Origin: Candidatus Hodarchaeum mangrovi
GTDB lineage: Archaea > Asgardarchaeota > Heimdallarchaeia > Hodarchaeales > Hodarchaeaceae
DNA length: 47,684 bases
Direction: 5' to 3'
Assembly: GCA_016839515.1 (NCBI GenBank)
Contig: JAEOUE010000163.1
Location: 1 to 47,684 of the forward strand
Below are positions 24,803 through 47,684 of this stretch, piece by piece. How positions within the stretch are numbered: position 1 is the first letter of the stretch; every line of letters starts with the position of its first letter. Made by a program: the position numbers and the translations under genes. The notes beneath the pieces were generated by a model. That model was given only the letters and a program-made list of their open reading frames with translations. It was not told the origin of the DNA and did not search any database.

Positions 24803-25552
24803 TTAGAGATCTTCTCTATATTTACGGTCACCATAAATCCCTATAACAATGACACCAATGAATAATATACTTACAAAGTAGAAAACGTATAAAATTATAT
24901 ATGGAGGGGAGGCATATCCTTTTACAAGGTCAAAAGTATAATTTTCAGGGTAAAAACTTGATTTAGGTAACTCATCACCATTATAAATGTGGAATTCTAC
25001 TCTAAAAACAAATTTATATGTACCAATTTCTACTAGGGTTAAAGCTGGTATTTCTACAATATCTGACCTAGTAGAATTTGGAGGAAGTATTATTTCTGCT
25101 GGATCTAAGTACCTAAAATTACTAATCCCTGTATAGCTTTTGTTCAGTTGATCTGCTTCTCCAGTGATATCTTTATAAATATCAACTGAAAATTTTCGAA
25201 TAACTAATGACTCTGATCTTCCGATTGGAAGGGAATAGGTTACCTGGACTCGGACAGAAGATCCATTAGCAATCTTAGGATTAGGATCTTTTTCTTCTAC
25301 TTTTTGCGATTCTTCAATTAAATCTTCTAATTTAACATAGGTGTTTCCTTTTTTAACCTCTAGATGTAATAAATTGACTTCTAGGAGATTAGAAGACTCC
25401 TGAAGGGAGTGAGGAATGGCTTCGGCCCGTAAATCATGGTTTAAACCATTTATTTGTGTTGGAATGGAAATCAGAAACAGAATTATCAACAATAGGGCGA
25501 ATATTTTTCTCATTTGATGTATCAACCTGTTTACGTTATTAAATATGTTCAA
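24803..25552 (-). CDS. Exported single-pass membrane protein with beta-sandwich ectodomain
   Basis: Signal peptide (MRKIFALLLIILFLIS, probable true start), beta-strand-rich body with sequons, C-terminal TM helix (YIILYVFYFVSILFIGVIVIGIYG). Confidence 0.75.
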   Translation of the reverse strand: MNIFNNVNRLIHQMRKIFALLLIILFLISIPTQINGLNHDLRAEAIPHSLQESSNLLEVNLLHLEVKKGNTYVKLEDLIEESQKVEEKDPNPKIANGSSVRVQVTYSLPIGRSESLVIRKFSVDIYKDITGEADQLNKSYTGISNFRYLDPAEIILPPNSTRSDIVEIPALTLVEIGTYKFVFRVEFHIYNGDELPKSSFYPENYTFDLVKGYASPPYIILYVFYFVSILFIGVIVIGIYGDRKYREDL

Positions 25553-25890
25553 TCATCGATTTAAGGTTCAATTGTATTTTTTTTTAACCTAACTATATTT
25601 TTTGTGATCTATACAGGTCAAGTGAGCAAAGTCTCTTATTCTTTAAAAATAAATTTCACTCAATTTATCTATTTTATAGTTCTTCATGGAATACTAGGTT
25701 GTGTATTCCATTGTAAAAAAACTCCTCATTTCTGTTTAGTCTTTTATCAAAGAAGTTTTCTAGAACTAATGCATCCCATTAAATGAAATTCCTCCAATGA
25801 GTGTCTCAGGCCAAGTAATATGTAATATCGAGTTATGTAAATTACTAATTCTATGTCTATCCTTCAAATTTATCAAAATCACCAGGTTTA

Positions 25891-27036
25891 CTATTCTAAC
25901 TCCATTATAGAAGTCTCCTCAGCAAGTAAAACTTTAACAACACTCTTAATTTTTGACTGTGACTCCTTAATTTCATTTAAATCATAGAACTTACTCATTT
26001 CCTTTTCAACGAGAAATTCAGGGTTATTTTTATTTTCTTCCGATAGGATAAGAAATATTTCTCTTTCGACAATACCTCGTGAAAATTTTCCTTTCAAAAG
26101 ATCAAAAATTATCTCATGAGCAATTAGAATCTCAAGATCCTTTGGAGTAATTCGTTTAATTACTTCTTTATTAATCATTAGGAGAGAAAAAAGTTCACTA
26201 GATTGACTAGATGACGTCATAGTGACTATTGGGAGAATAATAGGGTTAAATCGATTCTCTAAAGAGGTTTGGAATAAGAAGGGGACAACATTAATTCGAT
26301 AACGCTTAGCAATTTTTTGGGAATACTCTTTAAGATTTGATTGAATGCTTACCAGAGCTCGTTTTGCAACTCCTAATTCTTCAAAGAACTCAATCCTTTC
26401 TTTCTTGAAATCTTCATAGATTGTAGAAACAGGATGGATAGGAATACCCATTCGGACTTTCATTTTAAGTTGTATCTCAATTTTTTCAGCAAAATCCTTA
26501 TATGGAATAATTTCTCGTTTCTGAACCTGTATTGGGGATAATCGCTTAATATCATTGAATGCCTCAACTTCAGCCTCAGAGAGAGATAATTTTTTTTCAC
26601 ACATAACATGTCTTAAAATCGCTGCTAGGTATTCCATAGAAGTAGTAAGTGCAATGTTATCTAAAGATTGAAAGATAGGAATTGAGAAGGCAATTATTAG
26701 GAACATTTGATCATTTGAATTGAATAAATGAAAACAAAAGGGGCTTATCTTTTTATTTTCTCTTTGAATTAAACCATTAACTCCAAAAAAACGGACTCTA
26801 TCGACTACATCCATTAGACCTGCATATTGAAGAGTTACTTGTTCAAATTCAGTAGCCATCCATTCTTCTATAGTCAAACGATATTGAAATGATCGCGAAG
26901 GTATCTCATCAGTTCTGGGAATCATTTGAATAGCTTCTGTTTTATTATAATAAAAAAAATTTGGTAAAAAGAATTTCAAATGGATTAAAAGTAAATTAAT
27001 ATTTTTTTTTGCTACAAATCGCCAATATTTATACAA
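25891..27036 (-). CDS. Hypothetical protein with degenerate zincin-like motif
   Basis: Long ORF, probable true start at MIPRTDE (about 26925). LEILIAHEIIF resembles HExxH but lacks the second His. Confidence 0.7.
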   Translation of the reverse strand: MYKYWRFVAKKNINLLLIHLKFFLPNFFYYNKTEAIQMIPRTDEIPSRSFQYRLTIEEWMATEFEQVTLQYAGLMDVVDRVRFFGVNGLIQRENKKISPFCFHLFNSNDQMFLIIAFSIPIFQSLDNIALTTSMEYLAAILRHVMCEKKLSLSEAEVEAFNDIKRLSPIQVQKREIIPYKDFAEKIEIQLKMKVRMGIPIHPVSTIYEDFKKERIEFFEELGVAKRALVSIQSNLKEYSQKIAKRYRINVVPFLFQTSLENRFNPIILPIVTMTSSSQSSELFSLLMINKEVIKRITPKDLEILIAHEIIFDLLKGKFSRGIVEREIFLILSEENKNNPEFLVEKEMSKFYDLNEIKESQSKIKSVVKVLLAEETSIMELE

Positions 27037-27090
27037 TTAAGTAATTTTTTTTTGTTAAAATGTCCATTGAGATAAAAAAAGCTTGAATCC

Positions 27091-28113
27091 TCAAAATCGC
27101 TTTCCAGCTCTCTGATAAGCTATCCAAAATATTATGAGAAATATTGAAAACGCAAATATTATTGCAGTTGAACGACTAATCGTTTCTAGAGACCCTGAAG
27201 CGAAGTTAACAAGTTGGAAAAGGACTAGTGTTAACCACCCAGTAATACTAGTATCCTTAGTGCTAAGTAAACCCTTCCAATACCTAATAACAAGCATTAT
27301 CACACCTAATATGACTGCACCAACATGAATCCAACTAAGAAAAATTCCAAAAGTGTCAGTGAAAGATAAAAATAATGTTTCTAATACAAGAAAACATGAA
27401 ATAGAAATAATATTGATTATTAGGATTGGAACTTTCACAGTATAGTCTACCTGTTGAGCACCCTCATATACTAAGTAAAGAATCCCTCCAATTGTAACTG
27501 AATCAGCTAGTATTAATGCAGAAGTATATAAAATATCAATATTTTGGATCCAGAGATCTATTATATGGAAGAAAAAGCCTAAAATACCAGATCCAGTACC
27601 AAAGAGGTTATATCCAAAAAAAAATCCAATAACGACTAATAAGGGTAAAGGAAGGTATATCAGAGTCAATAAAATTGTTTTTCGTTGGGTGGTTATGACT
27701 TTACCCTCATCTCTCCACTTAAAAAGATAGATAGCGATGAAATATCCTCCGAATAGAGAGATAAAAGGTGTAATAATGGGAAATAAATAAATCATGCCAA
27801 TAACAAAGTTAAATCCATAAAATGCCTTGATAGTGGTAGGAAGACGCCAGACTTCATGCCCAAAAGTCTCATATGCATCTCCTATTTGATATCTTTTACC
27901 ATATGTCCAGAATAGGAATGGAAAGGCCATTATAAGGGGCCCGATTCCATAAACCAGAATATCAGAAATCAAGCGTAAATCTGAAGTATCTAAAAACCAA
28001 ATTACTCCATCTACAAAAATAAATGAAAGAACGTAGAAATAAATAGGAATTAAAATAGCTTGAAGAACAACTACTAATCTTCCATAATGAATGTAGGTGT
28101 CATAATCACTCAA
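27091..28113 (-). CDS. Multi-pass integral membrane protein, unknown function
   Basis: About 9-10 hydrophobic segments, GGAG SD before the TTG start. Confidence 0.8.
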   Translation of the reverse strand: MSDYDTYIHYGRLVVVLQAILIPIYFYVLSFIFVDGVIWFLDTSDLRLISDILVYGIGPLIMAFPFLFWTYGKRYQIGDAYETFGHEVWRLPTTIKAFYGFNFVIGMIYLFPIITPFISLFGGYFIAIYLFKWRDEGKVITTQRKTILLTLIYLPLPLLVVIGFFFGYNLFGTGSGILGFFFHIIDLWIQNIDILYTSALILADSVTIGGILYLVYEGAQQVDYTVKVPILIINIISISCFLVLETLFLSFTDTFGIFLSWIHVGAVILGVIMLVIRYWKGLLSTKDTSITGWLTLVLFQLVNFASGSLETISRSTAIIFAFSIFLIIFWIAYQRAGKRF

Positions 28114-31265: not shown

Positions 31266-34200
31266 CTATCTCTTTCGTTTCTTTTCTTCTTTACCCGATT
31301 CACCCCCGATTGAACTTAATTCTGATAATGCATCAGAAAAAAGTTCAGCTAAATCAGGAGGTTTGACCTTTGTTTCTTTTGATAACTCCTTAGATTCCTC
31401 TTTAACTTCTCCATATGCTACTTTTGGAATATTCAATTCTTCAGAGCTTAAATATTGTTCATCCTCAGAAATTGCTCTGACTATTGAAGACAGAGAATCG
31501 GGAACTTCCTTTTTAAAGAGTGAATCTGCTGAAATCTTAGAACTTTCATCTTTTCTGGATTTAGAGATAATATTTTGTGTATCTGCAATTGCCTTTTCAA
31601 GAATTGCTATTTCAGGAATTGAATCGTCTCTTTCCTGATACTCACGTGGCTCTTCCACTTTTTCAGCTCCGAAAATCGGTTTAGAACTCTCCTCTTGAAC
31701 CATTCTTTCTAAGGGTGATAAATCTGGTGTATCTTTTTGTGTAATCTTCTTGGTTTCTGGAGAGAGAATTTCCTCTTCCTGTCCAGATTCTTTTCGCCAT
31801 AGCCGGCCAAATGAATCAACCTCCCATTCTCCTTCGTCAGGGTAATCCTGTAAAATTTCTTTTGGTTCACTTGGAGTTTGACTAGAGAATAATTCGGAGA
31901 TTTCGGAATCGCTTAATCCAGCTTTCATTTTCTTTTGAATAGGCTTAATTTCAGATTTCTTCACTTTTTCTTCAAATTGAGGTGAAAAAAGCTCACTAAT
32001 TTCGTCATCTGATAAACTTGCATCACTCACATCTTTCGATTTACTTATTGGGAGTTCAAGGATTTCATCATCGATTTTTGGACTTTTAACAACAGGTTTT
32101 TCAGTTGGAATCCCTTTCAATTCTTGAGTAGCTTCAAAAAAAGCTTTTTCTACTGAATCAAGAGAAGGAATTTTATCTTTCTCATATACTGGTTTTGAAT
32201 CAGTTGCTTGAGTTCCAATTTCATAACCTTTTATCACTTTTACAAATTCCTCATCTATCTTTTCCTCACTTAAATCTTCCGTCATATCAATCTTAGGGCT
32301 AACATCGGGTATAATAATTTGAGAAGTATCTACAATAATTGGTTTGGGTTTAACTCCAGATGAAGGTTCATCAGCTATCTGAGTTTCTATTTTTAAATCT
32401 GTTTCTACATCAATAATTAGTTCCTCTGGTTTTAGGACTCCTAACTGGCTCGCTCGTTTATCTAAAAGTGCTTTGAACTCTTTTTTATACTTTTTAGGAC
32501 TAATTCCGAGATTTTCAAGATATTTTTGAACTAAATCTGCCTTAATTTTATCTCTTTTTTCTTTTGCATCATTAAGAAGGTAAACTAAAATACCTGCCAC
32601 CTTTACATTTTGATTGATCATTGCACTGAGACGACAAATATAATCTAAATATGAATACGCAATTTTAAGATTATCATATTCAATAGCTGTTTCTATTAAA
32701 ATGTGAACAGTATTAAACAATGCATCTAGGTCTTCTAAACTTTCTAATTTTTCTAGGGTTTGTTGAAATGATCCAAGGGCTGTTGAATGATTATAGCGAA
32801 TTAGGTAACTTGTTAAGGCAGCAAGCAATTGAGCTTCATATTTTTCAGCGTTAAATTTCTTGCAAATTTGGATACCCCGTTTATAAGTTCGAATAGCTCT
32901 TTTAGGAGAGGGGTATTTGTCACCTAAATTAGTATAAACATTTACGATGCCTTCAAAATTATTTAATCGTCGATAAAATTCTGCAGATTGGTATGCGTAT
33001 TCAGATGCTAAATCTGGATTTTCAAATGCAACAAAAAGGGCAAATTTTTCTGTAATCTTCGCAGCTAGAAGATTACCCTCACTACCAAATCTTTTTGTAT
33101 CAGAAACCATTTGAAGAATTCGATCGGTATACTCTCGTGCAATTTCGAGTAATGAACCTGAAATTAATTCTTTTATAAATTGAAAAGCGTGAGGTAAAAC
33201 TTCAGAAATTGGCTTAGTGGTCTTTTCTAATAATGTAGCCATTAAACGGGAGGATGACGAAAATTGATTGACCCTAAAAAATTTGGGGGAATATTTTAAT
33301 ACCAATTCATCTCCAAAATTATTTTTTCCCTCTTCATATGGATCAAGGAGTTGATTTACAATAAGATCAGCATTTTCTTTTGATAAATTTTCGCTCTGAA
33401 GCATTAAATCATAGATCGGTTCTGCAAATTCAAAAAATTCTTCGATTTCTGGTTTCATAACTCTCTTGATAGTAAGCAATAATTCAGTATCAGGATATTT
33501 TTGGAGAATTGAAGAAAAATGCTTTTTTGTGACTTTTTTAAAATCTCCTTCCTGATGTCGGGTTGTAACAATTCGTTCAAATACTCTTATTGCAGCTTCT
33601 TTATTTGTTTCATAGGTCGTATTGAATATCATTTGGAGAAATTCAAGAGCTTTATCAGCTTTACTATCTTCTTCAAGAAGTTTTGCCATTTCAATGGCAA
33701 AGGTTGACGCAGACTCAGCATCTCCACGATCTAATGCATTTTTTGCGTAATTCTTGACAGCATTGATTGCTAATTTATACTCAGAATGACTTCTACCAAA
33801 ACGTATTATTAGATCGGTCATACGATTTGCATCTTCGTATTGACCATGTTCTAAAAATATATCACGATTCTTTTCTAAATATTTAATCACTTGAGATATA
33901 TCACCAAGTCGTTCATAATACCGAGCTGTCTGAACAATAAATAGATATGCATCTTGATACCTTTTCATTTCAAATTGTTTCTCTATCAAACGTGAGACAA
34001 TAGTTATACTCTTCTTAAAGTCCTGACGTGGTTCTAATTGTTTTAGGATCATATCAGTGATTTTTTGCGCCAAAATAACTGAGGACTTCAAAGATTCCTT
34101 TTGATAATCTATTAAACTTTCAATAGCTCCTTCCAAATCTCCCATATTATTATATGTTTCAGCTATTTTTTGAATAACCGCATAGAGAAGATCATAACGA

Positions 34201-36848
34201 TTTGAATTTTCAAATAAATGAGTTACAAATCTTCCCATATAATCTATTGCCCGAGTTTGGTCTTTATTTTTTATTTGAAGAGCAGTAAGCTGATCTAATA
34301 AGAAAGCTGCTCTATCTAGCTGATTTCCAAGAAGAAGTTCTTTTATATAATCCATTAATAGATCATAATCTGTTTCATCAGTCTGAAGCATCAGACTAGC
34401 ACTGTATTTCATATACTCAAAAATCATATCGAATTGTTTATGTTCTTTTAACTTATCAATAAAATTACGACAGAACTTAAGAACATCAGATATCTTTTTT
34501 TCTGTTAATAACTTACCAAGTTCAAGATTTATCATTTCTTGAGCAGTTAGAACAGCTTGACTTTGCAATAATTCATCTACATACTGAAGAACTATTTTTT
34601 CTCTCTTTTTTTGATCTTTAATAGTATCAAGAGCTGTTTGAATATAAACTTTTGAATGATCCTTCATTCCTAATTTTCCAAATAAATCTCCTAGAGCTAA
34701 TTGTTTTTCAATTCTCCTAGATTCATTCGAAGCATAAGCCTGATCTATTAAATTTACAACAAATTTTAAATAATCTCGTGCTGCATTCGATTCTTTTAGT
34801 TCTAAAAGTCCTTTTACAATCTCTAGGCTAAAATCAACAGCCTCTTCTATTTTGTTAAGTTCATAAAAGTATTTTATAGTCTTATTGCCATACTCACATG
34901 CTTTAATATGATTATCAGAATCCATTAAATAAGAAGAACCATCTTTTGCATATTCAAGAGCAATATCTTTTTTATTTTGGGTTTCAGAGATCAGAATTAA
35001 ACGATCAGCATATTTCGCAAATAATGGCTTATAATTATAAGTTTTAATTAACTTTAGAGTAGTTTCTAAGGATTCCATAAGCTCAAAATGAGCCTTTTTC
35101 TCATCTTGAGCATTAAACGCTTTATCCAAAAATTCACAAGCTATTTCTTGAAATTTTTCTATCTCTCTTGAAGATAATCCGATTTCTTCAGATTTACTAA
35201 GATATCGTATCAAGAAATGACCATATCGTAAAGAGTTTTCCCACATTACTACAGGTAGTCTTGCTTTTTCAAAAGAATCAACCTGCTTTTGAGCAAGATC
35301 AATTACCTTTTTTACATCTGAAATCTTAGTTTCATCTGCTAAAAAGAAATCCAAGGCTAATCCAATTAAATTAGCCGCACTCAAATTATTTTCCTGTTCT
35401 ATTAGAATTTTTATTGATTCATCCACGAATTCTAACGCATAGCTCGGTTCTAACTCTAATAATTCTTCAATTATTTCATCACGGAGCTTCCCTGCGTCGG
35501 AGGATTTTTTCTGTTCATCATAATAATAAACTAATTTTTTGCCAAATTGTAAAATTCCTTTAGCATTTCTTTCTTTTTGAAAACGTTTGTAGAGTACTTG
35601 AGTTACTTTAGTAGCTCCTTTCATATCTTTTTTGGATTCAAATTGTTCAATTACTTCAAGATAATGCCCAACCGCAACATTTATTATGATTTCTTCCATG
35701 GGCTTTTGAGAAAGTAACTCTATTGTCTGTAAGACTTTTTCAGAAGCATCATATAAATAACTAAATGAAATCTGGGGTATATCTTTATTGATTACCTTTG
35801 CGATTTCATCTTGATTAATCTTTACTTCGGTTAAAGGAGTTAATGAACCTGAAGGCAACCGAAATCGTAGATACCATTTTTCCATTTTTCTTAGAATAAT
35901 GCACACTGAGCCACCTGATTGTTCTATTTTCATTTCTTTCACAGGTAGAGGCTGCCCTTGACTTACAAATTCCTTAACTTTGACCAAGAATTTATCAAAA
36001 TCTTCAGCTTTTGTGTATTCTGAAGTATCTAATTCGGATAAATCTATAATAGATAAGTCATCTTCAACTATACTGCTCTCAACTTCTTGTTCTTCTTCTA
36101 TATAACTCTCAACTTTTTGTTCTTTCTGGATAGTATCTTCAGACATTGTAAATTCTTCAGGGTGTAGAATAATTTTCTCTATCTGTTCAGCAGAGTCATA
36201 AATGGCAGAAAAAGAGAGAAAATCGACCCCTGATTCAGTTATTAAAGTAACGATTTTATCTTGATTAATATTTTCCTTTGTAAAACTTTTTTTAATTAAT
36301 GGAGTGCTCCCTCTGAAAATAATTATTGCATATTTCCCTTCAACAGTGTAATAAATCTCGGCAAATCCCCCTTGGGAGTATGGCATCGTAAATTTACTAA
36401 GGAGTTTGTCAGTAACATCTATTTTGACTTTAGGTTCTAGTTTACTCTCTTCAACTATTTCAGTGGGTGTATCGCTTACCTCTTTATCCTTGTATTTATC
36501 CGATATTTTTCGTGATATTTCGTCCTTTGTAATTTTTGTCTCAACAGGATAAAATTCTTCCTCTACATGTAGTTTTGATGTCATTGATTTAATAGTTGAT
36601 AATAATAAATCAGCCACATCAAAAATTGCCGAAAAACTAAAAAATTCTACTCCTGCATCACTTAAAAGGTCAACCATTTTATCCTGATTTACTTGTGTGA
36701 CTGATATTGCGGTTGATTTTAGCTTTCTTTCATTCTGAAAGAACGTAAAAACATATTCATCTCGATTTAAATCCTTACGTACTTCACATTCGACTCCACT
36801 TGTTGAAGGAAGCTCTAAACGTACTGAATTTTCTTCTCGTGTAGCCAT
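31266..36848 (-). CDS. Giant (1860 aa) protein: three N-terminal repeat domains, TPR/alpha-SNAP-like solenoid and acidic disordered tail
   Basis: Three copies of a ~75-80 aa unit sharing (V/I)NQD...SFS(A/Y)(I/L)(F/Y)D, about 1070 aa of amphipathic helical repeats, and an E/S/K/P-rich C-terminal ~390 aa. Confidence 0.85.
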   Translation of the reverse strand: MATREENSVRLELPSTSGVECEVRKDLNRDEYVFTFFQNERKLKSTAISVTQVNQDKMVDLLSDAGVEFFSFSAIFDVADLLLSTIKSMTSKLHVEEEFYPVETKITKDEISRKISDKYKDKEVSDTPTEIVEESKLEPKVKIDVTDKLLSKFTMPYSQGGFAEIYYTVEGKYAIIIFRGSTPLIKKSFTKENINQDKIVTLITESGVDFLSFSAIYDSAEQIEKIILHPEEFTMSEDTIQKEQKVESYIEEEQEVESSIVEDDLSIIDLSELDTSEYTKAEDFDKFLVKVKEFVSQGQPLPVKEMKIEQSGGSVCIILRKMEKWYLRFRLPSGSLTPLTEVKINQDEIAKVINKDIPQISFSYLYDASEKVLQTIELLSQKPMEEIIINVAVGHYLEVIEQFESKKDMKGATKVTQVLYKRFQKERNAKGILQFGKKLVYYYDEQKKSSDAGKLRDEIIEELLELEPSYALEFVDESIKILIEQENNLSAANLIGLALDFFLADETKISDVKKVIDLAQKQVDSFEKARLPVVMWENSLRYGHFLIRYLSKSEEIGLSSREIEKFQEIACEFLDKAFNAQDEKKAHFELMESLETTLKLIKTYNYKPLFAKYADRLILISETQNKKDIALEYAKDGSSYLMDSDNHIKACEYGNKTIKYFYELNKIEEAVDFSLEIVKGLLELKESNAARDYLKFVVNLIDQAYASNESRRIEKQLALGDLFGKLGMKDHSKVYIQTALDTIKDQKKREKIVLQYVDELLQSQAVLTAQEMINLELGKLLTEKKISDVLKFCRNFIDKLKEHKQFDMIFEYMKYSASLMLQTDETDYDLLMDYIKELLLGNQLDRAAFLLDQLTALQIKNKDQTRAIDYMGRFVTHLFENSNRYDLLYAVIQKIAETYNNMGDLEGAIESLIDYQKESLKSSVILAQKITDMILKQLEPRQDFKKSITIVSRLIEKQFEMKRYQDAYLFIVQTARYYERLGDISQVIKYLEKNRDIFLEHGQYEDANRMTDLIIRFGRSHSEYKLAINAVKNYAKNALDRGDAESASTFAIEMAKLLEEDSKADKALEFLQMIFNTTYETNKEAAIRVFERIVTTRHQEGDFKKVTKKHFSSILQKYPDTELLLTIKRVMKPEIEEFFEFAEPIYDLMLQSENLSKENADLIVNQLLDPYEEGKNNFGDELVLKYSPKFFRVNQFSSSSRLMATLLEKTTKPISEVLPHAFQFIKELISGSLLEIAREYTDRILQMVSDTKRFGSEGNLLAAKITEKFALFVAFENPDLASEYAYQSAEFYRRLNNFEGIVNVYTNLGDKYPSPKRAIRTYKRGIQICKKFNAEKYEAQLLAALTSYLIRYNHSTALGSFQQTLEKLESLEDLDALFNTVHILIETAIEYDNLKIAYSYLDYICRLSAMINQNVKVAGILVYLLNDAKEKRDKIKADLVQKYLENLGISPKKYKKEFKALLDKRASQLGVLKPEELIIDVETDLKIETQIADEPSSGVKPKPIIVDTSQIIIPDVSPKIDMTEDLSEEKIDEEFVKVIKGYEIGTQATDSKPVYEKDKIPSLDSVEKAFFEATQELKGIPTEKPVVKSPKIDDEILELPISKSKDVSDASLSDDEISELFSPQFEEKVKKSEIKPIQKKMKAGLSDSEISELFSSQTPSEPKEILQDYPDEGEWEVDSFGRLWRKESGQEEEILSPETKKITQKDTPDLSPLERMVQEESSKPIFGAEKVEEPREYQERDDSIPEIAILEKAIADTQNIISKSRKDESSKISADSLFKKEVPDSLSSIVRAISEDEQYLSSEELNIPKVAYGEVKEESKELSKETKVKPPDLAELFSDALSELSSIGGESGKEEKKRKR

Positions 36849-37182: not shown

Positions 37183-38430
37183 TTACTCTGATCTTTCACG
37201 AAAAATCTGAATCAGATTTAGTATTGTTTCCACTGATTTTTCTAAGGCTAATAAAGGAACAAACTCCTTTTTACTGTGGAAGTTCATGGCTCCAGAAAAA
37301 ATATTAGGTGTAGGAAGTCCTTTATAACTTAATCTTGCCCCATCAGTTCCACCACGAACAGGTTTCTTTATAACATCTATCCCAGAACGTTTAATGGCTT
37401 CCTCAGCATATTGAATGGTATAAGGGACTTTTTCAAGCTGATACTTCATATTTTTATATTGTTCTTTGATAGATAGATGAATCTTAGCTTTGGGATATTT
37501 GTCTTGAATATTCCCCACTATCTTTTCAATCCTACTAATCTTGTTCTTAAGCTCTACATAATCAAAATCACGAAGAATAAACCGAATTTTGGATTCATTA
37601 ACAGATCCTTCAGCCTCATAAACATGAAAAAAACCTTCCATCCCTTCAGTTGTTTCTGGAGCTTGGTTTAAAGGAAATTGATTAATAATCTCTCCCATTA
37701 TTCGAAGAGAATTGACCAATTTATCTTTTGCATAACCAGGGTGAAAATTAAATCCCTTAATCGTGATGGTTCCTCCTGCTGCATTGAAAGTTTCAAATTC
37801 TAAGACTCCCATTTCATCACCATCAATTGTATAACCAACATCTGCACCCAATGCTTTTACATCAAGTGCATCAACTCCATGACCTACTTCTTCGTCAGGA
37901 GTAAAGACTATTTTAATAGTTCCATGTTTAATGTGGGGATTTTTATGTAATGTCTCGACTGCTGTCATGATAGCAGCAATTCCTGCTTTATTATCACCCC
38001 CTAATAGAGTAGTTCCATCCGTAGTGACAATATCACTCCCAATAAAGCGCTTTAATGCAGGAGTTTCAAATGGAGAGATGAAGATTTCGGAATTATTTGG
38101 TAATAGGATATTTCCTCCATCATAATTCGTGATTATTTGAGGATTAACATTTTCTCCAGGTTCTTCAGGAGAGGTATCCATATGGGCTAAAAAACATATT
38201 ACTGGAATCTTGCTAGACTGTTCTTCAGGTAAATTAGAGGGGATTGAACCAATAACATAACAGTGATCATCTACAACAGCATCAAAAACCCCAATCTCTT
38301 TTAATTCCTTTACAAGAACTTTTGCAAGATTAAATTGTCTAATAGTACTTGGGATATTGTCGATATCCTCTTGGCTAGTGGTATGGATTTTCACATATCT
38401 TAAAAAGCGTTCTAAAATAGGTGTGGTCAT
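37183..38430 (-). CDS. pepT: Peptidase T (M20B tripeptidase)
   Basis: ERFLRYVKIHT, AHMDTSP, TDGTTLLGGDNKAG, FTPDEEVG, RGGTDGARLS, NFHS. Confidence 0.96.
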   Translation of the reverse strand: MTTPILERFLRYVKIHTTSQEDIDNIPSTIRQFNLAKVLVKELKEIGVFDAVVDDHCYVIGSIPSNLPEEQSSKIPVICFLAHMDTSPEEPGENVNPQIITNYDGGNILLPNNSEIFISPFETPALKRFIGSDIVTTDGTTLLGGDNKAGIAAIMTAVETLHKNPHIKHGTIKIVFTPDEEVGHGVDALDVKALGADVGYTIDGDEMGVLEFETFNAAGGTITIKGFNFHPGYAKDKLVNSLRIMGEIINQFPLNQAPETTEGMEGFFHVYEAEGSVNESKIRFILRDFDYVELKNKISRIEKIVGNIQDKYPKAKIHLSIKEQYKNMKYQLEKVPYTIQYAEEAIKRSGIDVIKKPVRGGTDGARLSYKGLPTPNIFSGAMNFHSKKEFVPLLALEKSVETILNLIQIFRERSE

Positions 38431-38766
38431 CTTAACATCATAAGATTTTTGTAAAACTCCTTGATATAGTTGTTTTGATTTGTTGAATACACTTGTTCAA
38501 TGTTTATCTTTTCAAAAAAAGATAAGGAAAAAAAAGGCCCACTCCTATTTTTAAATCACCAATTCTGTTATTATTTAATCTTAAATCTAGCTAGTATCTT
38601 CAACAGCTCTTCCCCTAATTTAGTTAATGACCAGTATCGCTGTCTACAATTTGTAAAATAATTATTTTATATAAAAAATAGATTTTGAATTAAAACTATT
38701 AATATTTGATAAATGATAGCTATATTTAACTTTATATATTTAAAAAAAAGAGAAAATGAAGGTGTT

Positions 38767-39477
38767 TTACCTAGAAACAGGGAGATGAGGAATTAATAAT
38801 GCTGCTAACAACCCTATTTCACGATTTTGAGTATAAACGACTCCTGGACCACGATATCGAATCACAATACCTTCCCCACCGAGTATGAAACTCTTTCTTC
38901 CACCTACCTTCGAGACAGTATGGTTCATATGCGTTTGAAATGCCATCATCACGCCATTGTCGACCACTAGCTCTTCATCATCCTTAAGGTCATGGCGTTC
39001 AACAAAACCATAACCTCCAATCCAGACATCTCCTTCTGCTTCAGCATACAATTTTGTTAAAACAAGTCCTTCTCCACCAAGGACACTTTTAAATCCTCCT
39101 AACTGAGATGTAACTTCAATACTTGGAGTTCCACAGATATATGCATCTCTACTTAATGTCCATTCTTCGCCCTGATTAAGATGCAAATGTACAATGTCTC
39201 CAGGGGCACCATGGGCAAAAGCAACCATACCAGGAGGTGAACCATCAGGAAGAGTAAAGAAATTCTGAAACATTGATTCACCTGAAAATTTACGTTGTAG
39301 GCCCTTCATAAGGCCGCCAGCGGATTTTGTTTCCATAGAAATATGTCCTGACATATAAACCATAGCACCACCCTCGGCTCTAACCTGTTGTCCAGGCTGT
39401 TCAAGATGGATTCGGACTAAAGAAAACGCTGGTTTACCTGTTATTTCATATTTTAAAAAAGACTTATCTTTATTCAT
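38767..39477 (-). CDS. AIM24 / TIGR00266 family protein
   Basis: VRAEGGAMVYM, SGESMFQN, repeated GGEG motifs, VDNGVMMAF, GPGVVYTQNR. Confidence 0.92.
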   Translation of the reverse strand: MNKDKSFLKYEITGKPAFSLVRIHLEQPGQQVRAEGGAMVYMSGHISMETKSAGGLMKGLQRKFSGESMFQNFFTLPDGSPPGMVAFAHGAPGDIVHLHLNQGEEWTLSRDAYICGTPSIEVTSQLGGFKSVLGGEGLVLTKLYAEAEGDVWIGGYGFVERHDLKDDEELVVDNGVMMAFQTHMNHTVSKVGGRKSFILGGEGIVIRYRGPGVVYTQNREIGLLAALLIPHLPVSR

Positions 39478-39581: not shown

Positions 39582-39606
39582 AAAAAAAAGGGAGGTGAAA
39601 AAAAAA
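39582..39606 (-). terminator. Oligo-U tracts after the vWA gene (putative archaeal terminator)
   Basis: T9 and T8 runs on the minus strand immediately after the vWA stop. Confidence 0.5.
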
Positions 39607-40890
39607 TTAGGGGGATAGATTTTGTTTTCTTAATGAATACATTGTTGCGGTCATTTTCTTCCGATTTACCTTTGAATAACTTTCTTGATCCAACATATCA
39701 GACAAAATGCTAGTATTTGTACTTTGGAGCTTTTCTAATATTTGCGAACCCCCTGTTTTCTCTATTCTTTCCTTGAGCTTCTGTTGAAACTCATTCATTG
39801 TCCTTTGAGCATTTGAAAATTGTCCCTGATCTGCAAAATTAATCACTTCTTGGTGAATAAAAACTGCTTCAAGCAAATGAGCATTTTCGATGATCTCATC
39901 ATCTTCCTGTGCTAGATAATCTTCATTTTCAGTGTAGATAATTTCACAACTAGAATGTGTTTTATCCTCTTTTGGTATTCCACTTCCAGGAATCCAACAT
40001 ACTGTAAAATCTAGGATTTTTTGCTTAGAACCTCCTAGAGATTTTGGCGGAACTACAACATCGAGGATTAGAATGATTTCTTTTTCACTTCGTAAATCAC
40101 CGAGCTTAGTTGAATTGGAAAAACGGGATTCATAGGGAACTCCCAGGACTCTATTAATTTTTAAGCCTTCAATTCCCTTCCATTGTACTTCTAAATTATA
40201 AGCAACTGTTTCAAGTAATCCTTCAAACTCTTGTGCAATATATTTCGGTATATCATCTGCTGTCTCTATAAAATAGAATGTACCACCTGCAGAATCAGCA
40301 ATAGTAACAAGAAGATCCTCATCAAAATCTTCTCCAACCCCAAATGTGCTAATGCATATTCCTTTATTATAGATCCCTTCTACTCCAGATTTTATCGTTC
40401 CTTTATCAGTTATACCTTCATTCGCTAATCCATCTGACAAAAGCAAGATCATATTTCTAAACTCCTTATTTTTCCCCATTTCAACTTGCTTTACTCCTTC
40501 CAAGATTCCTCCATATAAATTAGTTCGACCACGATCACAAACATTCCTTATTTTGTTGATTGTTGATGTTTGTGATATTAAAACTCCAGAGGGTATCAAA
40601 TTCTCAATTAAGTGGTCATAAACTGTAAAAGAAAATATATCTGTGTTTGTAAGATTATTGACTATAAATTCCACAGCTTCTTTAGCTTTTTGGAGTTTTT
40701 TTCCTCTCATACTTCCTGATCGATCAAGTACAATACCTAAATTCAAAAAATTTCGTTGTTTAACAGGATTAAAGTTAATTCCGGTTATTTTAAGCTGAAC
40801 AAAAAGGTGTGTATTTCCCGATGCTAGAGCATAGGGGGAACTTAGAGTAACTTCTAACTTAAAAGGTTTTTTATGTTTCATACCATTCAT
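39607..40890 (-). CDS. von Willebrand factor A domain protein (YfbK/CLCA-like) with intact MIDAS
   Basis: LNLGIVLDRSGSM, GRTNL, LLLSDGLANEG, FGVGEDFDEDLL, GGTFYFI, followed by a beta-sandwich and a C-terminal helical bundle. Confidence 0.93.
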   Translation of the reverse strand: MNGMKHKKPFKLEVTLSSPYALASGNTHLFVQLKITGINFNPVKQRNFLNLGIVLDRSGSMRGKKLQKAKEAVEFIVNNLTNTDIFSFTVYDHLIENLIPSGVLISQTSTINKIRNVCDRGRTNLYGGILEGVKQVEMGKNKEFRNMILLLSDGLANEGITDKGTIKSGVEGIYNKGICISTFGVGEDFDEDLLVTIADSAGGTFYFIETADDIPKYIAQEFEGLLETVAYNLEVQWKGIEGLKINRVLGVPYESRFSNSTKLGDLRSEKEIILILDVVVPPKSLGGSKQKILDFTVCWIPGSGIPKEDKTHSSCEIIYTENEDYLAQEDDEIIENAHLLEAVFIHQEVINFADQGQFSNAQRTMNEFQQKLKERIEKTGGSQILEKLQSTNTSILSDMLDQESYSKVNRKKMTATMYSLRKQNLSP

Positions 40891-40902
40891 TTTATTTCTT
40901 CC

Positions 40903-41487
40903 TTATTTTGATCGCCTTTCAATTGATTTTTGTTCGTCATAAACTTTTTTACCCTTTTTTGTAGGCTTTATTTTTTTATTTGGCCTTCCAGGTTTGTTTT
41001 TTTTATAAATTTCTTTTTGATCACGGCTTCTTGTTGTTTTTGAATAATAATTTGTTTCTTCTATTAAATCTAATCTGTTCAACTCCCGTAAGCCTTGAAC
41101 AACTGTATTGGGGGATAATTGAGTGGAATCTTGAAGAGCTATAACGTTAATCCCCTCATTCAAGTTTATTTCTTCAAGTAAAATTCGTTGTGATCTTGAG
41201 AGCTGTGAAAACTCAGGATGAGACACCAGTTCCTTCTCTAAAATATTAAATCCCTCAGGGGTTAATGAGTATGATTTAGAATTTGGAGGATCTCTTGATA
41301 TCAGGCCTGCTAACTCCATTTCTTTAATTCTTCTATAAACGGTCGCAGTTGTTACCTTTCCCCTAAAAGAGTAAAAAGAACTCTCATTTATTTCTTGATT
41401 TATATCTGGGGCAGTTTTCTGAGGATTAGATTTAAGATAATTCAAAATTTCAAGCGTTCCTTTAGCAGACAATAAATCCAACATCAT
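40903..41487 (-). CDS. Tandem winged-helix DNA-binding protein
   Basis: HTH1: TLEILNYL...TVYRRIKEMELAGLISR...YSLTPEG. HTH2: QRILLEEI...LSPNTVVQGLRELNRLDLI...KPGRPNKKIKPTKKG. Confidence 0.85.
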   Translation of the reverse strand: MMLDLLSAKGTLEILNYLKSNPQKTAPDINQEINESSFYSFRGKVTTATVYRRIKEMELAGLISRDPPNSKSYSLTPEGFNILEKELVSHPEFSQLSRSQRILLEEINLNEGINVIALQDSTQLSPNTVVQGLRELNRLDLIEETNYYSKTTRSRDQKEIYKKNKPGRPNKKIKPTKKGKKVYDEQKSIERRSK

Positions 41488-41496
41488 AAATCATCC

Positions 41497-42840
41497 TTAG
41501 GTTTTTTGAGTGGGGTGAATTACCTCAGGAGGGGCTTGATTTATTATTTCTTGTCTTTGTATTAAATTTCGAATCTGATAACCACGAGGTATAGTTCTTG
41601 GAGATTTTCTCTCTTTTAAGATATCAATGTGTTTCTTAGAGGCATAGAAATGAGCTGGAAAATCATCAAACATAACACAGATACCCTCCCATTTGTTATC
41701 ATTGAATTTATACAGTGATCCACCTCCAGTTGCTTTGAGTGGTTTAACTTCTAAATCTTGAAACTCCTTCTTTAATATGTTATTTATATCTCCAGAAAAA
41801 CCTTTAGATATCTTTTCATGGAAAAAAACTTTATCAGTAAGAAATCCCTTCAATACTACTTCATTAAATTGAAGCCAAAGAGAATTAGACCCATAAATCT
41901 CTATTCCGAGTAATTTATCGTTATAGAAACATAACAAACCTACCTGATTGGGAATCATTAAATCAGGCTTTAACTTTTGAAATATTTCCGACATTTTTTG
42001 GCTTTTTTCTATCGATTTCTGTTGAATTTCGCGGTAGCTACTAGTAGGGGCTTCATCGATTCCAAGATTGAGAGCATCTGCAACCACTTCTATGGCATTC
42101 CAGACTGTTGACTGATCAGCTCCCATTGAAGCAACGTATCCCATTTGAGGGGTCATTCTTGTATCTGCAGATTTAAATTTAAATGTGGTTGCTTCGCCAT
42201 GTGAACTTTCGTAATTCCATCGCGATCGTTCAATACATCGCGCAGGTATTTTCAAGGGATTGTCCTTTGTACGACCTGATGGAATAATAATAGGTTCAAA
42301 AATGGTTCTGTCCTGTTTTCCTCCTTCAACCTGATGAAGGTAGGGTATGAGAATAGGTAATTCACTTAGATTTATTGCTTCCAACCATTCTACCGACTCA
42401 GCCCTCTCATTTTCTTGGATCCAACCCAATTCACGTTTCTCAGCTTCAGTAATTCCTAGCATTGAGAGGCTAGATTTTTGGATTATTGGATAAATTGTAA
42501 AACCTTCACAATATTTAGAGGATTCAAATTCATAGATTTCTGTAAAATTATATAAAATCTTCTTAAAACTCGCTTCTGTCATTTTATAATCACCATCTGG
42601 CTTAATATTCAATTTTTCTTTTAAATAAATTATAGATTTTTTATTATTAAATCGGACATACTTAATTAATTCTCTTTGTTCTAGAATATTTATAATTTGA
42701 AAGATTTTTGCAGTAGTTACTTTTTTATGCATCTTAAGAATAAGATATTCATTTAAATCATCAATAGATACTCTAGGATTTCCATTAAGGAATTCTAAAA
42801 TATCTAATGTGAGTTTTCCTTTTTGATTCATTTGGCTCAA
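41497..42840 (-). CDS. wHTH fused to an ARPP-1 (DUF6569)-like domain
   Basis: N-terminal ~80 aa wHTH, then VEWLEAINLSELPILI...EGGKQDRTI...IIIP...IPARCIERSRW, QSTVWNAI and NQVGLLCF...GIEIYGS, matching the ARPP-1 pattern (GxKQxR, CxExxRW, QxxVW). Confidence 0.8.
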   Translation of the reverse strand: MSQMNQKGKLTLDILEFLNGNPRVSIDDLNEYLILKMHKKVTTAKIFQIINILEQRELIKYVRFNNKKSIIYLKEKLNIKPDGDYKMTEASFKKILYNFTEIYEFESSKYCEGFTIYPIIQKSSLSMLGITEAEKRELGWIQENERAESVEWLEAINLSELPILIPYLHQVEGGKQDRTIFEPIIIPSGRTKDNPLKIPARCIERSRWNYESSHGEATTFKFKSADTRMTPQMGYVASMGADQSTVWNAIEVVADALNLGIDEAPTSSYREIQQKSIEKSQKMSEIFQKLKPDLMIPNQVGLLCFYNDKLLGIEIYGSNSLWLQFNEVVLKGFLTDKVFFHEKISKGFSGDINNILKKEFQDLEVKPLKATGGGSLYKFNDNKWEGICVMFDDFPAHFYASKKHIDILKERKSPRTIPRGYQIRNLIQRQEIINQAPPEVIHPTQKT

Positions 42841-42857
42841 AACAGGTTTTAATTAAT

Positions 42858-42906
42858 TATACTTTTTGATAATTTATAAATTTAACTATTTCTATCAAAA
42901 AATATA
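42858..42906. promoter_or_regulatory. 14-bp inverted repeat flanking a TATA box upstream of the ARPP-1 operon (putative operator)
   Basis: TATACTTTTTGATA (42858-42871) and TATCAAAAAATATA (42893-42906) are 13/14 complementary. The 21-nt spacer contains TTTATAAA (42873-42880). A third half-site TATCAAAAAA starts at 42958. Confidence 0.5.
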
Positions 42907-43142
42907 ATAAAAATTTAATGACTTTGTTTTAACAATTTCAAATCATATTCGATTAATTATCAAAAAAATTATTCTAGAAGATATAATTTAAGCCATAATT
43001 TAAAATTCTTTTATAAAATCCTTATAAAAAATACGTGAAAATGATATTCCTTATATTATGAAATTAAGATAAATTAGAATGATAAATTTCCTAAGTAAAA
43101 CATATAATCAAAGAAAAAAGGAAAGAAGTTCTATTCTCTCAA

Positions 43143-44732: not shown

Positions 44733-46529
44733 ATGATCATGGGAACTCTCACATATCAAAGTCTAGGAAGGCCAACTGACACAAGTCTCCCATTAATGGG
44801 TCATCGCCCAATGTATCTTATGCATAAATTTTTTGCCAGAAAACAGGCAAATGTTATCCGAAAGTACATAAAATTGCATTCTTCTGAACAAGATGTTGTT
44901 TTAGATCCATTTTGCGGTAGCGGAGTAATGATTGGCGAAAGTCTTCGTTTAAAACGGCACGCTATAGGCATTGACATTAATCCAGTTTCAATCTTTATAT
45001 CAAAAAATACTTTAACTTTTGTTTCACCTGATTTAATATTAGATGAGTTCAATCGCGTAAGATTTGAGGTTGCAAAGGAAATTGAATCCTTATATAGATC
45101 TACATGTCGTATATGTGAATTACCTATAAATGCTATTTGTTTGACATGGAATCACTCTGAATTAGTTGATATACGCTATAATTGTCCTAAAGATGGAAAG
45201 CGAATAGACCTAGTAAATGATTATGATTTACAACTTATTGATTTTATTGCTAATAACAAAGATTCACGGTTTTTTAAAAAAAATGGAGAATCAAAATTTT
45301 GGTTCCCAAAATTGCCTTTGGTTTATCCTGATGGAACTCCCTTTCTTAAAAGGGAGCATTATAACAATATTCCAGAGTTATTTACTCCTAGAAACTTAAT
45401 ATCCTTGGCAAAATTATTCTCAAGTATCCAAAAGTGTTCCAATCCACAATTGAAAGAATCACTTTTGTTTGGCTTCTCATCGATTGTTCATTTAGCGTCA
45501 AAAATGGTTCCTGTTCGCCCCTCAAGACCCTTTAGTTCAGCTTGGGTACAACAGAGTTATTGGTCGGTTCCAAATTTTATGGAATCTAATGTATGGAGTC
45601 TCTTCGATCGAGCAATAACAGGAAAACAAGGACTCCTAAATGCAAAAATAGATTTAAAACAATCTATAGATAAAATCCAGTATAAATCTGACATTAACGA
45701 ACTATTTCAAAAGCAGAATTCTCAAATTCCAATCTATACCTTGATAAATTCATCCCTTGAAAAGCTTAAGAATATCCCTGATGAATCCATTGATTATGTT
45801 ATTACTGATCCTCCTTACGGACATTCAATACAATATGGAGAACTATTGTTTTTGTGGGGGGCATGGTTAAACTTAGTTGATGAATATACAACAGCTCTAT
45901 CTCAAGAACTAATTGAAAACTCTCGTCAGAATAAAACAATAGCAGATTATGAAAATCATCTCTTTATTATTTTTAAAGAAATTTTCCGTGTATTAAAACC
46001 ATCAAAATGGCTTACAGTAACCTTTCATAATCCTCAATTAAAATATCGTACCATCTTATATCGTTGTGCAATTTTATCAGGTTTTTCTCTCGAGGAAATC
46101 CATTATCAACCACCAGCTCGACCATCAGCCAAAAGTTTGCTTCAACCATTTGGATCATTAAGTGGAGATTATATTTTTCGCTTTAAGAAGCCTAAAAATG
46201 CAATAAATAAGGATTTTCAACTAATTTCTGAAGATCAATTTGAGAAAATTGTAGTGAATTTGGTTTATAAAATTATAAAGGAATACAAAACTCCGATTCC
46301 TTTTACTTTAATCCAAAATTCTTTGGACCCAAAGCTTTATAAGAAGCTCTATGAACATGATATGCTTCTAACATTTCATCCTAAGAAGATAGAAAGTATT
46401 TTATCTAAACATCTAGGGAATCTATTTGTTTTGAGTGATATCAAGTGGAAAATTACTGCAAATAAGGAAGTTTCCATGAAAGGGTGGTTTATAACAGAAA
46501 ACAAACATCCCAAGAGACCTGTTTCCTAA
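44733..46529 (+). CDS. Amino-DNA methyltransferase (probably N6-adenine, COG1743-like with Zn-ribbon-like insert)
   Basis: MHKFFARK, VLDPFCGSG (motif I), CRIC insert, VITDPPY (motif IV), RVLKP...VTFH. Confidence 0.9.
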   Translation: MIMGTLTYQSLGRPTDTSLPLMGHRPMYLMHKFFARKQANVIRKYIKLHSSEQDVVLDPFCGSGVMIGESLRLKRHAIGIDINPVSIFISKNTLTFVSPDLILDEFNRVRFEVAKEIESLYRSTCRICELPINAICLTWNHSELVDIRYNCPKDGKRIDLVNDYDLQLIDFIANNKDSRFFKKNGESKFWFPKLPLVYPDGTPFLKREHYNNIPELFTPRNLISLAKLFSSIQKCSNPQLKESLLFGFSSIVHLASKMVPVRPSRPFSSAWVQQSYWSVPNFMESNVWSLFDRAITGKQGLLNAKIDLKQSIDKIQYKSDINELFQKQNSQIPIYTLINSSLEKLKNIPDESIDYVITDPPYGHSIQYGELLFLWGAWLNLVDEYTTALSQELIENSRQNKTIADYENHLFIIFKEIFRVLKPSKWLTVTFHNPQLKYRTILYRCAILSGFSLEEIHYQPPARPSAKSLLQPFGSLSGDYIFRFKKPKNAINKDFQLISEDQFEKIVVNLVYKIIKEYKTPIPFTLIQNSLDPKLYKKLYEHDMLLTFHPKKIESILSKHLGNLFVLSDIKWKITANKEVSMKGWFITENKHPKRPVS

Positions 46530-46746
46530 AAATGATTTTTGTTTGAAATGATTATTTCTCTTAACATTAAAACTCAAAATATTTAAAAATGATATAATCT
46601 AGCGTTACATGCCCTATAATTTCGAGAATGAACCACGATCTACAAGAAATAATCTGAAAATCTAGGATCTTCCTAGCTTTCGAATTATTCTTCAATCGTA
46701 TCATTCACGGGATTATAGGCAATAATAAACCGAGAGGGATAAATAT

Positions 46747-47684
46747 TTGAAAATTAATAAGTTTTATAATGATAATCGCGCTAATTTCCCAAGGACTGCA
46801 GCAGTAATTTTTGACGGAAGCTATTGGAATACTATTCGACGGGAATTAGGGATGCTTGAGGTCGATTTAACCCTATTAAGTGAAGCACTTTGCAGTCCTT
46901 CTTATCGCTTAAGATCTTATTACTTTGATGGAAAAGATAATCAAAGACAAAGCTTCCATGATGGATTACAGTTTCTACCACGTTTTGAAGTAATTCTTGG
47001 CGATGTAGTTGAACGACAATCGGAATGTCCTCATTGTCATAAAGAAATAGTCTCACGAGAGCAAAAGCGAGTAGATGTACAACTTGCAGTGCAAATGGTT
47101 CATCTTGCTACATCACGTCAAGTAGACATGATAGTTTTAGTAGCAGGAGATCGAGATTTTATTCCATCATTGGAGATAGCAAAATATGCTGGTGTTGTAG
47201 TAAGACTGGTTCATGGACCAAAAATCACCACATCAACTGACTTGAGATTTCATGCAGATGAAACCTTTGAATTAACACAAAATTATCTTTCAGAATTCAT
47301 TCGTTCTAATAAAAAGCAAAAAACTAAGAAATCATCTGTGAAAAAAATTACAAAAATTCCATCCGTCCAAGAAGAATCTATAACTAAAGAATTAAAGGTT
47401 GAAGCGAAAAATCTTCTTATTAGTGCCCTAAGTGAGCTACAGGAATCATCTGATGAAGATATATTAGCAAGTCAACTAGGAATTGTTCTTACCAAAATTA
47501 AACCAAAATGGAAGGATTATTTTAGGGTAAAAAAACTCATAAATTTTGTTCAGTTAACAAATGACAGTATTCTAGTTCCTAGATTTAAAGGTAAAGTTTT
47601 AATATTTAAACAAAAGATTGATATTCCCCCAGCAGCTAAAAAAATTGGAAAAAAAGAAAATTTGGGATCAGAATTCCTCATAAA
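46747..47684 (+). CDS. NYN-domain (LabA/DUF88, PIN-like) nuclease with OST-HTH/LOTUS-like domain, runs off the right edge
   Basis: Absent from the ORF track (truncated). Open frame from TTG 46747 (GAGGGA upstream) contains AVIFDGSY, YYFD, EQKRVDVQLA, LVAGDRDFIP, LRFHADE, then ILASQLGIVL...FRVKKLINFVQ. Confidence 0.9.
   Translation, partial: MKINKFYNDNRANFPRTAAVIFDGSYWNTIRRELGMLEVDLTLLSEALCSPSYRLRSYYFDGKDNQRQSFHDGLQFLPRFEVILGDVVERQSECPHCHKEIVSREQKRVDVQLAVQMVHLATSRQVDMIVLVAGDRDFIPSLEIAKYAGVVVRLVHGPKITTSTDLRFHADETFELTQNYLSEFIRSNKKQKTKKSSVKKITKIPSVQEESITKELKVEAKNLLISALSELQESSDEDILASQLGIVLTKIKPKWKDYFRVKKLINFVQLTNDSILVPRFKGKVLIFKQKIDIPPAAKKIGKKENLGSEFLI

Follow-up and report, generated by a model that had tools for sequence, protein, structure and literature searches.

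The window, a 47,684-nt stretch of the genome of Candidatus Hodarchaeum mangrovi (contig JAEOUE010000163.1), contains a compact operon of three genes, which encode a winged helix-turn-helix (wHTH) domain fused to an ARPP-1 domain, a tandem wHTH protein, and a von Willebrand factor A (vWA) protein. The three open reading frames (ORFs) are intact, all lie on the minus strand, and are spaced 9 nt (41488-41496) and 12 nt (40891-40902) apart, in agreement with the co-orientation and spacing described in an earlier sequence-only reading of this DNA. The labels of homologous proteins likewise point to Hodarchaeales. The genome that includes the window (G000) has 4.0 Mb and is 91% complete. Each gene of the operon has one tblastn match in it, and all three are thus single-copy. 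The GC content of the operon is typical of the genome (0.331 versus 0.329), and its neighbours are pepT, AIM24, and a gene of the major facilitator superfamily (MFS). A Pfam scan of the window proteins confirmed the earlier observation that no ADP-ribosylglycohydrolase (ARG), phosphatase, or AAA+ gene lies beside the operon: none of the 32 proteins scanned is an ARG, no phosphatase adjoins the operon, and no MoxR AAA+ gene is present at the locus in the window or at the loci of relatives. The two strong AAA_3 matches to MoxR-type ATPases in the genome are on contigs other than that of the operon. Nudix or WYL sensors and restriction endonucleases (REases) were not found at the operon in the window Pfam scan or at the loci of relatives.

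Features of the wHTH-ARPP-1/tandem wHTH/vWA operon, in positions of the window
Feature	Position	Strand	Description
Distal 17-bp operator box	42892..42908	-	weak copy, position weight matrix (PWM) score 9.7
TATA-like TTTATAAA	42873..42880	-	between the two operator boxes
Proximal 17-bp operator box	42856..42872	+	inverted relative to the operon, PWM score 17.3
wHTH-ARPP-1 fusion gene	41497..42840	-	447 aa from TTG; 444 aa from ATG 42831
N-terminal wHTH of the fusion	42616..42831	-	paralog of wHTH-1 of the tandem protein; Pfam, sequence comparison
Predicted internal translation start	42580..42594	-	Shine-Dalgarno-like GGTGAT and in-frame ATG (M87) at the ARPP boundary
ARPP-1 domain (PF20208)	41647..42531	-	meander beta-sheet core with inserted beta-barrel plus helices; Pfam, alignment, AF2 model
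Tandem winged-helix regulator gene	40903..41487	-	194 aa; two wHTH domains; predicted repressor
vWA protein gene	39607..40890	-	427 aa; YfbK/ArnB type, MIDAS (metal ion-dependent adhesion site) intact
Predicted archaeal terminator	39582..39606	-	T9 (39598-39606) and T8 (39582-39589) tracts straight after the vWA stop

The operon was compared with its relatives in 22 genomes of the genus (G000 and 21 others), which are 70-99% complete, and genes missing from them are to be read as not found rather than absent. ARPP-1 was found in 16 of the 22 genomes. The genes for ARPP-1, the tandem wHTH protein, and the vWA protein are adjacent in ten (G000, G003, G007, G009, G011, G012, G014, G015, G017, and G019), as expected if the three genes co-occur in other genomes; the vWA gene of G003 carries two stops. 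Four genomes (G001, G006, G016, and G021) have ARPP-1 and wHTH without a vWA match, and five (G002, G004, G013, G018, and G020) have a solo wHTH, the tandem wHTH, and the vWA gene without ARPP-1 at the locus, two of them (G018 and G020) with a lone ARPP-1 elsewhere in the genome. G008 has a vWA gene at a contig edge, and G005 and G010 have no match. The view of the triad as one obligate unit is therefore not supported, and its constant part is the tandem wHTH, present in 19 of the 22 genomes. One or more of the genes that flank the operon in the window (pepT, AIM24, MFS, a DNA methyltransferase gene, or a large TPR-like gene) also flank the majority of the ARPP-containing loci; shared flanks were not seen within the stretches fetched for G014 and G015. 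The ARPP-less arrangement occupies a different site, which is common to its genomes. The solo wHTH of this variant (L072-L076) has a short Cys/His-rich tail, and the variant adjoins a small GTPase gene and a 699-aa gene. Phylogenetic trees, of which that of ARPP is a quick version, place G000 on long branches and resolve neither the deep forks nor the order of ARPP gain and loss.

The promoter of the operon carries a conserved operator. In the relatives, the region upstream of the first gene has two copies of an asymmetric 17-bp box, one ahead of the TATA box and one covering the expected start site, and the window and nine relatives have two boxes flanking the TATA box. The boxes form a direct repeat in most relatives; the window and G019 have the proximal one in inverted orientation. 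This inversion gives rise to the 9-bp inverted repeat around the TATA box that was described earlier. The repeat is present, but it was rejected as a stand-alone signal, because 77 of 200 shuffled sequences reach a 9-bp arm, and it counts only because the same box is conserved in relatives. With a matrix built from 16 boxes of eight relatives, the window left out, the proximal box of the window ranks 5th of the 259 sites in its genome that score at least 10. The two boxes of G003 (L023), which is outside the training set, score 24.4 and 20.1, and the inverted form is kept at four of the five ARPP-less loci (score 11.9). No box scoring at least 11 was found near lone ARPP-1 genes. The other nine sites among the top ones listed for the genome are single boxes, mostly intragenic, and therefore the box looks autoregulatory. 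A wider regulon was rejected, as only two weak pairs of boxes occur elsewhere in the genome. The conserved operator and the absence of a wider regulon support the self-regulation proposed for the operon. From the position of the boxes, and because they track wHTH genes more closely than ARPP-1, we infer that the tandem wHTH protein binds them. At the other end of the operon, the U-tracts reported before are borne out by two T-tracts behind the vWA stop codon, between which an anti-Shine-Dalgarno-like CACCTCCC is positioned (39590-39597, minus strand), possibly by chance.

The 194-aa protein contains two wHTH stretches recognized by Pfam and no recognized ligand-binding domain. The N-terminal wHTH of the fusion gives a weak FUR-type match (residues 13-75, E = 0.025) that is below the Pfam cut-off, but the domain is 34% identical to wHTH-1 of the 194-aa protein (E = 3e-7), in line with the earlier count of three wHTH domains in the module. 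Its recognition helix has diverged in the window (TAKIFQII versus TATIYRR[VLI] in relatives), and the fused domain may for this reason be decaying there. The wHTH-ARPP-1 frame is intact in eight genomes (G000, G007, G009, G011, G014, G015, G017, and G019). The wHTH of the fusion is broken or vestigial in G003 and G006, the genes of G001 and G016 begin at the ARPP domain, and contig ends truncate those of G012 and G021. The operon of G003 (L023) has stops in both the N-terminal wHTH and the vWA protein, and that of G006 (L021) has a vestigial wHTH and no vWA; both operons are decaying. It is likely that the fusion gene also yields a free ARPP-1 domain, because the ARPP boundary carries an in-frame start codon with a Shine-Dalgarno-like hexamer ahead of it. 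The signal is present in seven of the eight intact fusions, which come from kindred genomes, against a background of 4 of 129 start-type codons within the ARPP core. The hexamer and the linker residues of the window differ from those of the relatives, which argues against mere amino-acid conservation as the cause of the signal.

The assignment of the ARPP-1 domain (DUF6569), for which a profile search had been suggested, is borne out by a match to PF20208 over residues 104-398 (E = 8.5e-33, 114 bits versus a curated cut-off of 27) that covers positions 3-294 of the 297 in the profile. Eight residues are invariant in all 138 diverse ARPP-1 proteins aligned. Q176, R178, C202, E204, and R207 belong to the KQxR and CxExxRW motifs recognized before, and Q243, W247, and G301 are additions to them. 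An AlphaFold2 (AF2) model of the domain (predicted local distance difference test (pLDDT) score of 93) has an outer sheet and, as an insertion, a subdomain of barrel plus helices, which carries every invariant residue except G301. The model agrees with the fold description of Iyer et al. 2022 (PMC9503650), who, drawing an analogy to SRAP, propose that ARPP acts on ribose by covalent chemistry through its Cys. Section 3.8 of that paper names ARG, HIRAN, WYL, and deacetylase domains as partners of ARPP and links ARPP to ADP-ribose contexts; vWA proteins are listed there among the variable chaperones of ARG systems, in which repressor genes are also present. The invariant Cys/Gln/Arg/Glu/Trp set is compatible with an active site. 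No solved structure related to ARPP-1 by sequence was found, a search of the ESM Atlas returned ARPP clusters only and no usable match for the isolated insert, and an NCBIfam scan gave nothing above the cut-off. PMC9503650 is the only publication on ARPP-1 or DUF6569 in the literature searched, which excludes subscription journals. Nothing was found there on the operon described here; an ARPP-vWA or archaeal example may be included in Figure 7 or the supplement of PMC9503650.

The vWA protein matches VWA PF00092 in Pfam (E = 1.4e-16), and 66 homologs all retain its MIDAS residues, D56-x-S58-x-S60, T123, and D153. Among solved structures, it matches 8s05, ITIH1, and 5a8j (VWA2) best, and the match to 8s05 (E = 1.1e-12) extends over residues 50-235, which is the vWA part only. 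According to PMC12852372, 8s05 is ArnB, which consists of a vWA domain, a split beta-sandwich, and a helical bundle and negatively regulates archaellum genes; comparable architectures are noted there in YfbK, Heimdallarchaeota, and Sec23/24. The length and sequence of the window's protein suggest a similar layout, with a split beta-sandwich and a C-terminal helical bundle. Its relatives form a Hodarchaeales clade (43-87% identity), followed by YfbK-like proteins at about 30-35%, the named ones being bacterial.

With E values of up to 0.001, 4974 representatives belong to the ARPP-1 family, which is present in 122 of the 301 Asgard genomes sampled. A scan of genome contigs yielded 36 loci, of which the 22 most distant (L050-L071) were analysed; one of them shows G016 a second time, so that 21 other Asgard loci remain. 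The pattern search favours close relatives, and the loci are an uneven sample of the phylum. A conserved small gene is positioned directly upstream of ARPP-1 at 16 of the 21 loci, and ArsR-type HTH models match four of the five such genes tested. At none of the 21 loci is ARPP-1 partnered by a protein that matches the tandem wHTH or vWA protein of the window. Since the ARPP-1 of a second clade sits behind a different, ArsR-type wHTH, the pairing of a regulator with ARPP-1 recurs with different regulators, and the vWA protein is a local addition, seen in this genus only. The second clade, mostly labelled Promethearchaeota, has a two-gene operon of ArsR-type wHTH and ARPP-1 (L054, L056, L058, L059, L062, L063, L065, and L067), in which an imperfect palindrome upstream of the ArsR-like gene is conserved, about 15 nt behind the TATA box; by eye, several of the loci with such an upstream gene have their own palindrome just behind the TATA box. 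L050, L051, and L098 lack an HTH gene, and their lone ARPP-1 is flanked by the genes for acetyl-CoA synthetase and an MFS transporter.

The triad is a conserved chromosomal unit, and with a probability of about one half it functions as a self-repressed damage- or stress-response operon. The tandem wHTH protein would keep the operon off by binding the asymmetric boxes that flank the TATA box, and the paralogous wHTH on ARPP-1 may help the repression where it is intact. A stress signal would relieve the repression, the regulator itself being without a sensor domain. ARPP-1, likely also as the free domain from the internal start, would attack a ribose- or sugar-bearing damage product via Cys202, the candidate substrates being an ADP-ribose remnant or a damaged nucleic-acid end. 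Located in a pocket of Gln, Arg, Glu, and Trp residues, Cys202 may form a covalent intermediate, as PMC9503650 proposes for the family. The vWA protein would be an accessory metal-dependent peptide-binding adaptor or co-regulator, associated with the operon in this Hodarchaeales genus only.

Several observations weigh against this interpretation. The distal box of the window is weak, and the loci of G001 and G016 keep ARPP-1 and wHTH without a box scoring at least 11 near the gene. No ARG was found in the 91% complete genome of the window, and no substrate or activity of ARPP-1 is reported in the literature searched. Measured as identity from G009, the operon genes (ARPP 58-86%, wHTH 45-80%, and vWA 66-85%) diverge faster than AIM24 (78-96%) and the MFS gene (87-93%); the divergence of ARPP-1 and vWA is not faster than that of PepT (77-85%). 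Modular gain and loss and the faster divergence would also fit conflict systems.

The sequence-only reading had presented the module as an undescribed stress or conflict system. Of its two roles, the stress-type one is supported, and a conflict role is possible but less likely; the three genes are likely a stress-response operon and not an anti-virus system. The term undescribed holds in part, because ARPP, vWA chaperones, and repressors already occur together in the ARG-centred bacterial neighbourhoods of section 3.8 of PMC9503650. These neighbourhoods are the basis of an unlikely alternative, in which the operon would represent the anti-ADP-ribosylation conflict systems without their ARG and be switched on when viruses modify host molecules: ARPP-1 would process a ribose remnant, the vWA protein would chaperone modified proteins, and ARG would act in trans. 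ARG genes are indeed present, away from the operon, in 14 of the 22 genus genomes, including all nine other genomes with the triad; however, the correlation is weakened by the kinship of these genomes. The presence of ARG in these nine also counts in favour of the stress-response reading. The gain, loss, and divergence described above also suit this alternative. On the other side stand the lack of ARG, Nudix or WYL sensors, phosphatase, and REase at the locus, and the failure to find ARG in the window's genome. PADLOC gave no match for ARPP-1 or the vWA protein, and its matches for wHTH are generic CARF/Csa3 HTH ones; together with the single copies, native GC content, and housekeeping neighbours, this makes the conflict role less likely. 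No toxic effector domain is present in the operon. A phage collection gave no tblastn match, and plasmids gave three weak matches, with one distant homolog as the query.

In comparison with the ARG-centred systems and the HIRAN-ARPP, WYL-ARPP, and deacetylase-ARPP neighbourhoods, as described by Iyer et al. 2022 (PMC9503650), the operon has the same ARPP with invariant Cys and Gln, a modular make-up, a repressor-type regulator, and a vWA gene, which belongs there to the variable chaperone genes. In contrast to these systems, it is archaeal, has no ARG, phosphatase, or REase at the locus, and lies in a housekeeping neighbourhood. Its regulator is a sensor-less tandem wHTH protein instead of the Nudix-HTH or WYL-HTH that is, like a coupled phosphatase, common although not universal there, and a wHTH is fused to ARPP-1.

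A more doubtful alternative to the stress-response operon is that wHTH and vWA are its functional core and signal in the manner of ArnB, the vWA protein acting on the DNA-binding protein as a modulator, and that ARPP-1 is an inserted passenger with a borrowed promoter. It would account for the five genomes that keep the solo wHTH, tandem wHTH, and vWA genes without ARPP-1, four of them with the inverted box, and it draws on the resemblance of the MIDAS vWA domain to ArnB/ArnE of Sulfolobus (8s05 and 5a8j) and on the regulatory role that PMC12852372 gives to ArnB. However, four genomes keep ARPP-1 and wHTH with no vWA of this clade, the similarity to ArnB is confined to the vWA part, and beyond Hodarchaeales the closest proteins are YfbK-like. 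Unlike in ArnA-ArnB, no FHA/ZnF ArnA partner was found (there is no match to the FHA domain, PF00498, in the 91% complete genome), no link to an archaellum was seen, and the vWA protein is co-encoded with ARPP-1 and wHTH. The operator was found at this operon only, which leaves no visible output gene besides the operon itself.

It is improbable that ARPP-1 is an intracellular Cys-Gln thioester, a "chemical harpoon" that traps its target covalently, with the vWA protein as its MIDAS-binding partner. Complement C3 with factor B provides the analogy for a thioester protein with a vWA partner, and Hodarchaeales are a lineage proposed to be close to eukaryotes. In its widest and just as improbable form, ARPP-1 would be a widespread, independently evolved intracellular thioester or covalent trap, co-regulated in Hodarchaeales with a MIDAS vWA protein as a prokaryotic analogue of the complement pairing. 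The comparison stems from two invariant motifs separated by 30-57 residues, C-[IVT]-E and [DNS]-Q-x-x-[VIT]-W, which resemble in pattern (C-phi-acidic and Q-x-x-phi-W) and spacing those of the thioester domain (TED, PF08341) of Gram-positive adhesins, given as [YFL]C-phi-zeta and TQxx-phi-W in PMC4450167 and PMC6194298. Both domains have a beta-barrel followed by three helices, and another invariant Gln, Q176, might serve as acyl donor. However, this candidate donor comes before the Cys (at a distance of 22-26 residues in 133 of 138 proteins), the reverse of the TED order, Y or F stands before the Cys in only 21 of 138 and T before the Gln in 6 of 138, a profile-profile comparison with seven aligned TED sequences reached no significance (probability 0.6%, 12 columns), although it was centred on the two cysteines, ARPP-1 is cytoplasmic, linked to DNA regulators, and devoid of a secretion signal or cell-wall anchor, and ARPP-1 and vWA are separable across genomes. 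No TED structure was among the matches listed (at most 50 per search) by Foldseek and VIA-align for the ARPP domain model and the isolated Cys/Gln insert, in searches that could miss a circular permutation. The best fold matches of the domain model (Z 4.2, rmsd 5.3, 90 aligned) and of the insert (pLDDT 95.6; phage baseplate wedge barrels, Z 4.7, rmsd 3.5, 65 aligned) are at background level. A TED family search without a match in 201 Asgard genomes carries no weight, since no positive control matched either; mean-field covariation in the 138 sequences was too noisy to place C202 relative to the two Gln residues. A 2026 preprint on TED-like folds in immunity (10.64898/2026.10.19.760177) deals with the complement-type toroid, and ARPP is not mentioned in its accessible part.

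Two further comparisons concern single components. Unlike in MoxR-vWA systems, no MoxR AAA+ gene adjoins the vWA gene of the operon. SRAP proteins use an N-terminal Cys; unlike in SRAP/HMCES, the Cys of ARPP-1 is internal, and no SRAP family match is listed for it. The proposed covalent capture of a sugar by Cys and the damage context resemble those of the SRAP/HMCES cross-linkers of abasic sites, an analogy drawn in PMC9503650.

Other genes of the window surround the operon. A TldD/TldE (PmbA) protease pair lies between pepT and AIM24 in L020, L021, L023, and L028-L030 and is missing there in the window (38430-38767). The ORF at 31266-36848 encodes a 1860-aa helical, TPR-like protein whose N-terminal domains are repeated and whose tail is acidic; it is kept across the genus (45-56%) and has at most weak TPR matches in Pfam. 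An orphan-looking DNA methyltransferase gene (PADLOC PglXI/MTase_II matches), followed by a gene for an NYN-domain protein, occupies 44733-47684; the methyltransferase is near the operon in G009 and G017 too. Three successive ORFs without a Pfam match (249, 381, and 340 aa) are located at 24803-28113 and adjoin a JAB/MPN protease gene (23893-24795).

The operon is real and conserved, yet modular and lineage-restricted, and it is an ARG-less archaeal variant of the published ARPP neighbourhoods. New here are the operator, the three-way modularity, the internal start, and the recurring pairing of a regulator with ARPP-1 in other Asgard archaea. Its significance is limited by the restriction of the triad to one genus, by the separability of its parts, and by the fact that its component types are already in print. 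ARPP-1 is, however, a large family with an invariant catalytic-looking pocket and with no sequence-related solved structure or experimental function in the literature searched. In Asgard archaea it is often paired with a dedicated wHTH regulator, without ARG, and the operon of ArsR-type wHTH and ARPP-1 is a second, simpler system for finding the ARPP-1 signal. With its defined operator, its candidate repressor, and the natural start of a free domain, the locus of the window makes the inducing signal and the chemistry of ARPP-1 directly testable.

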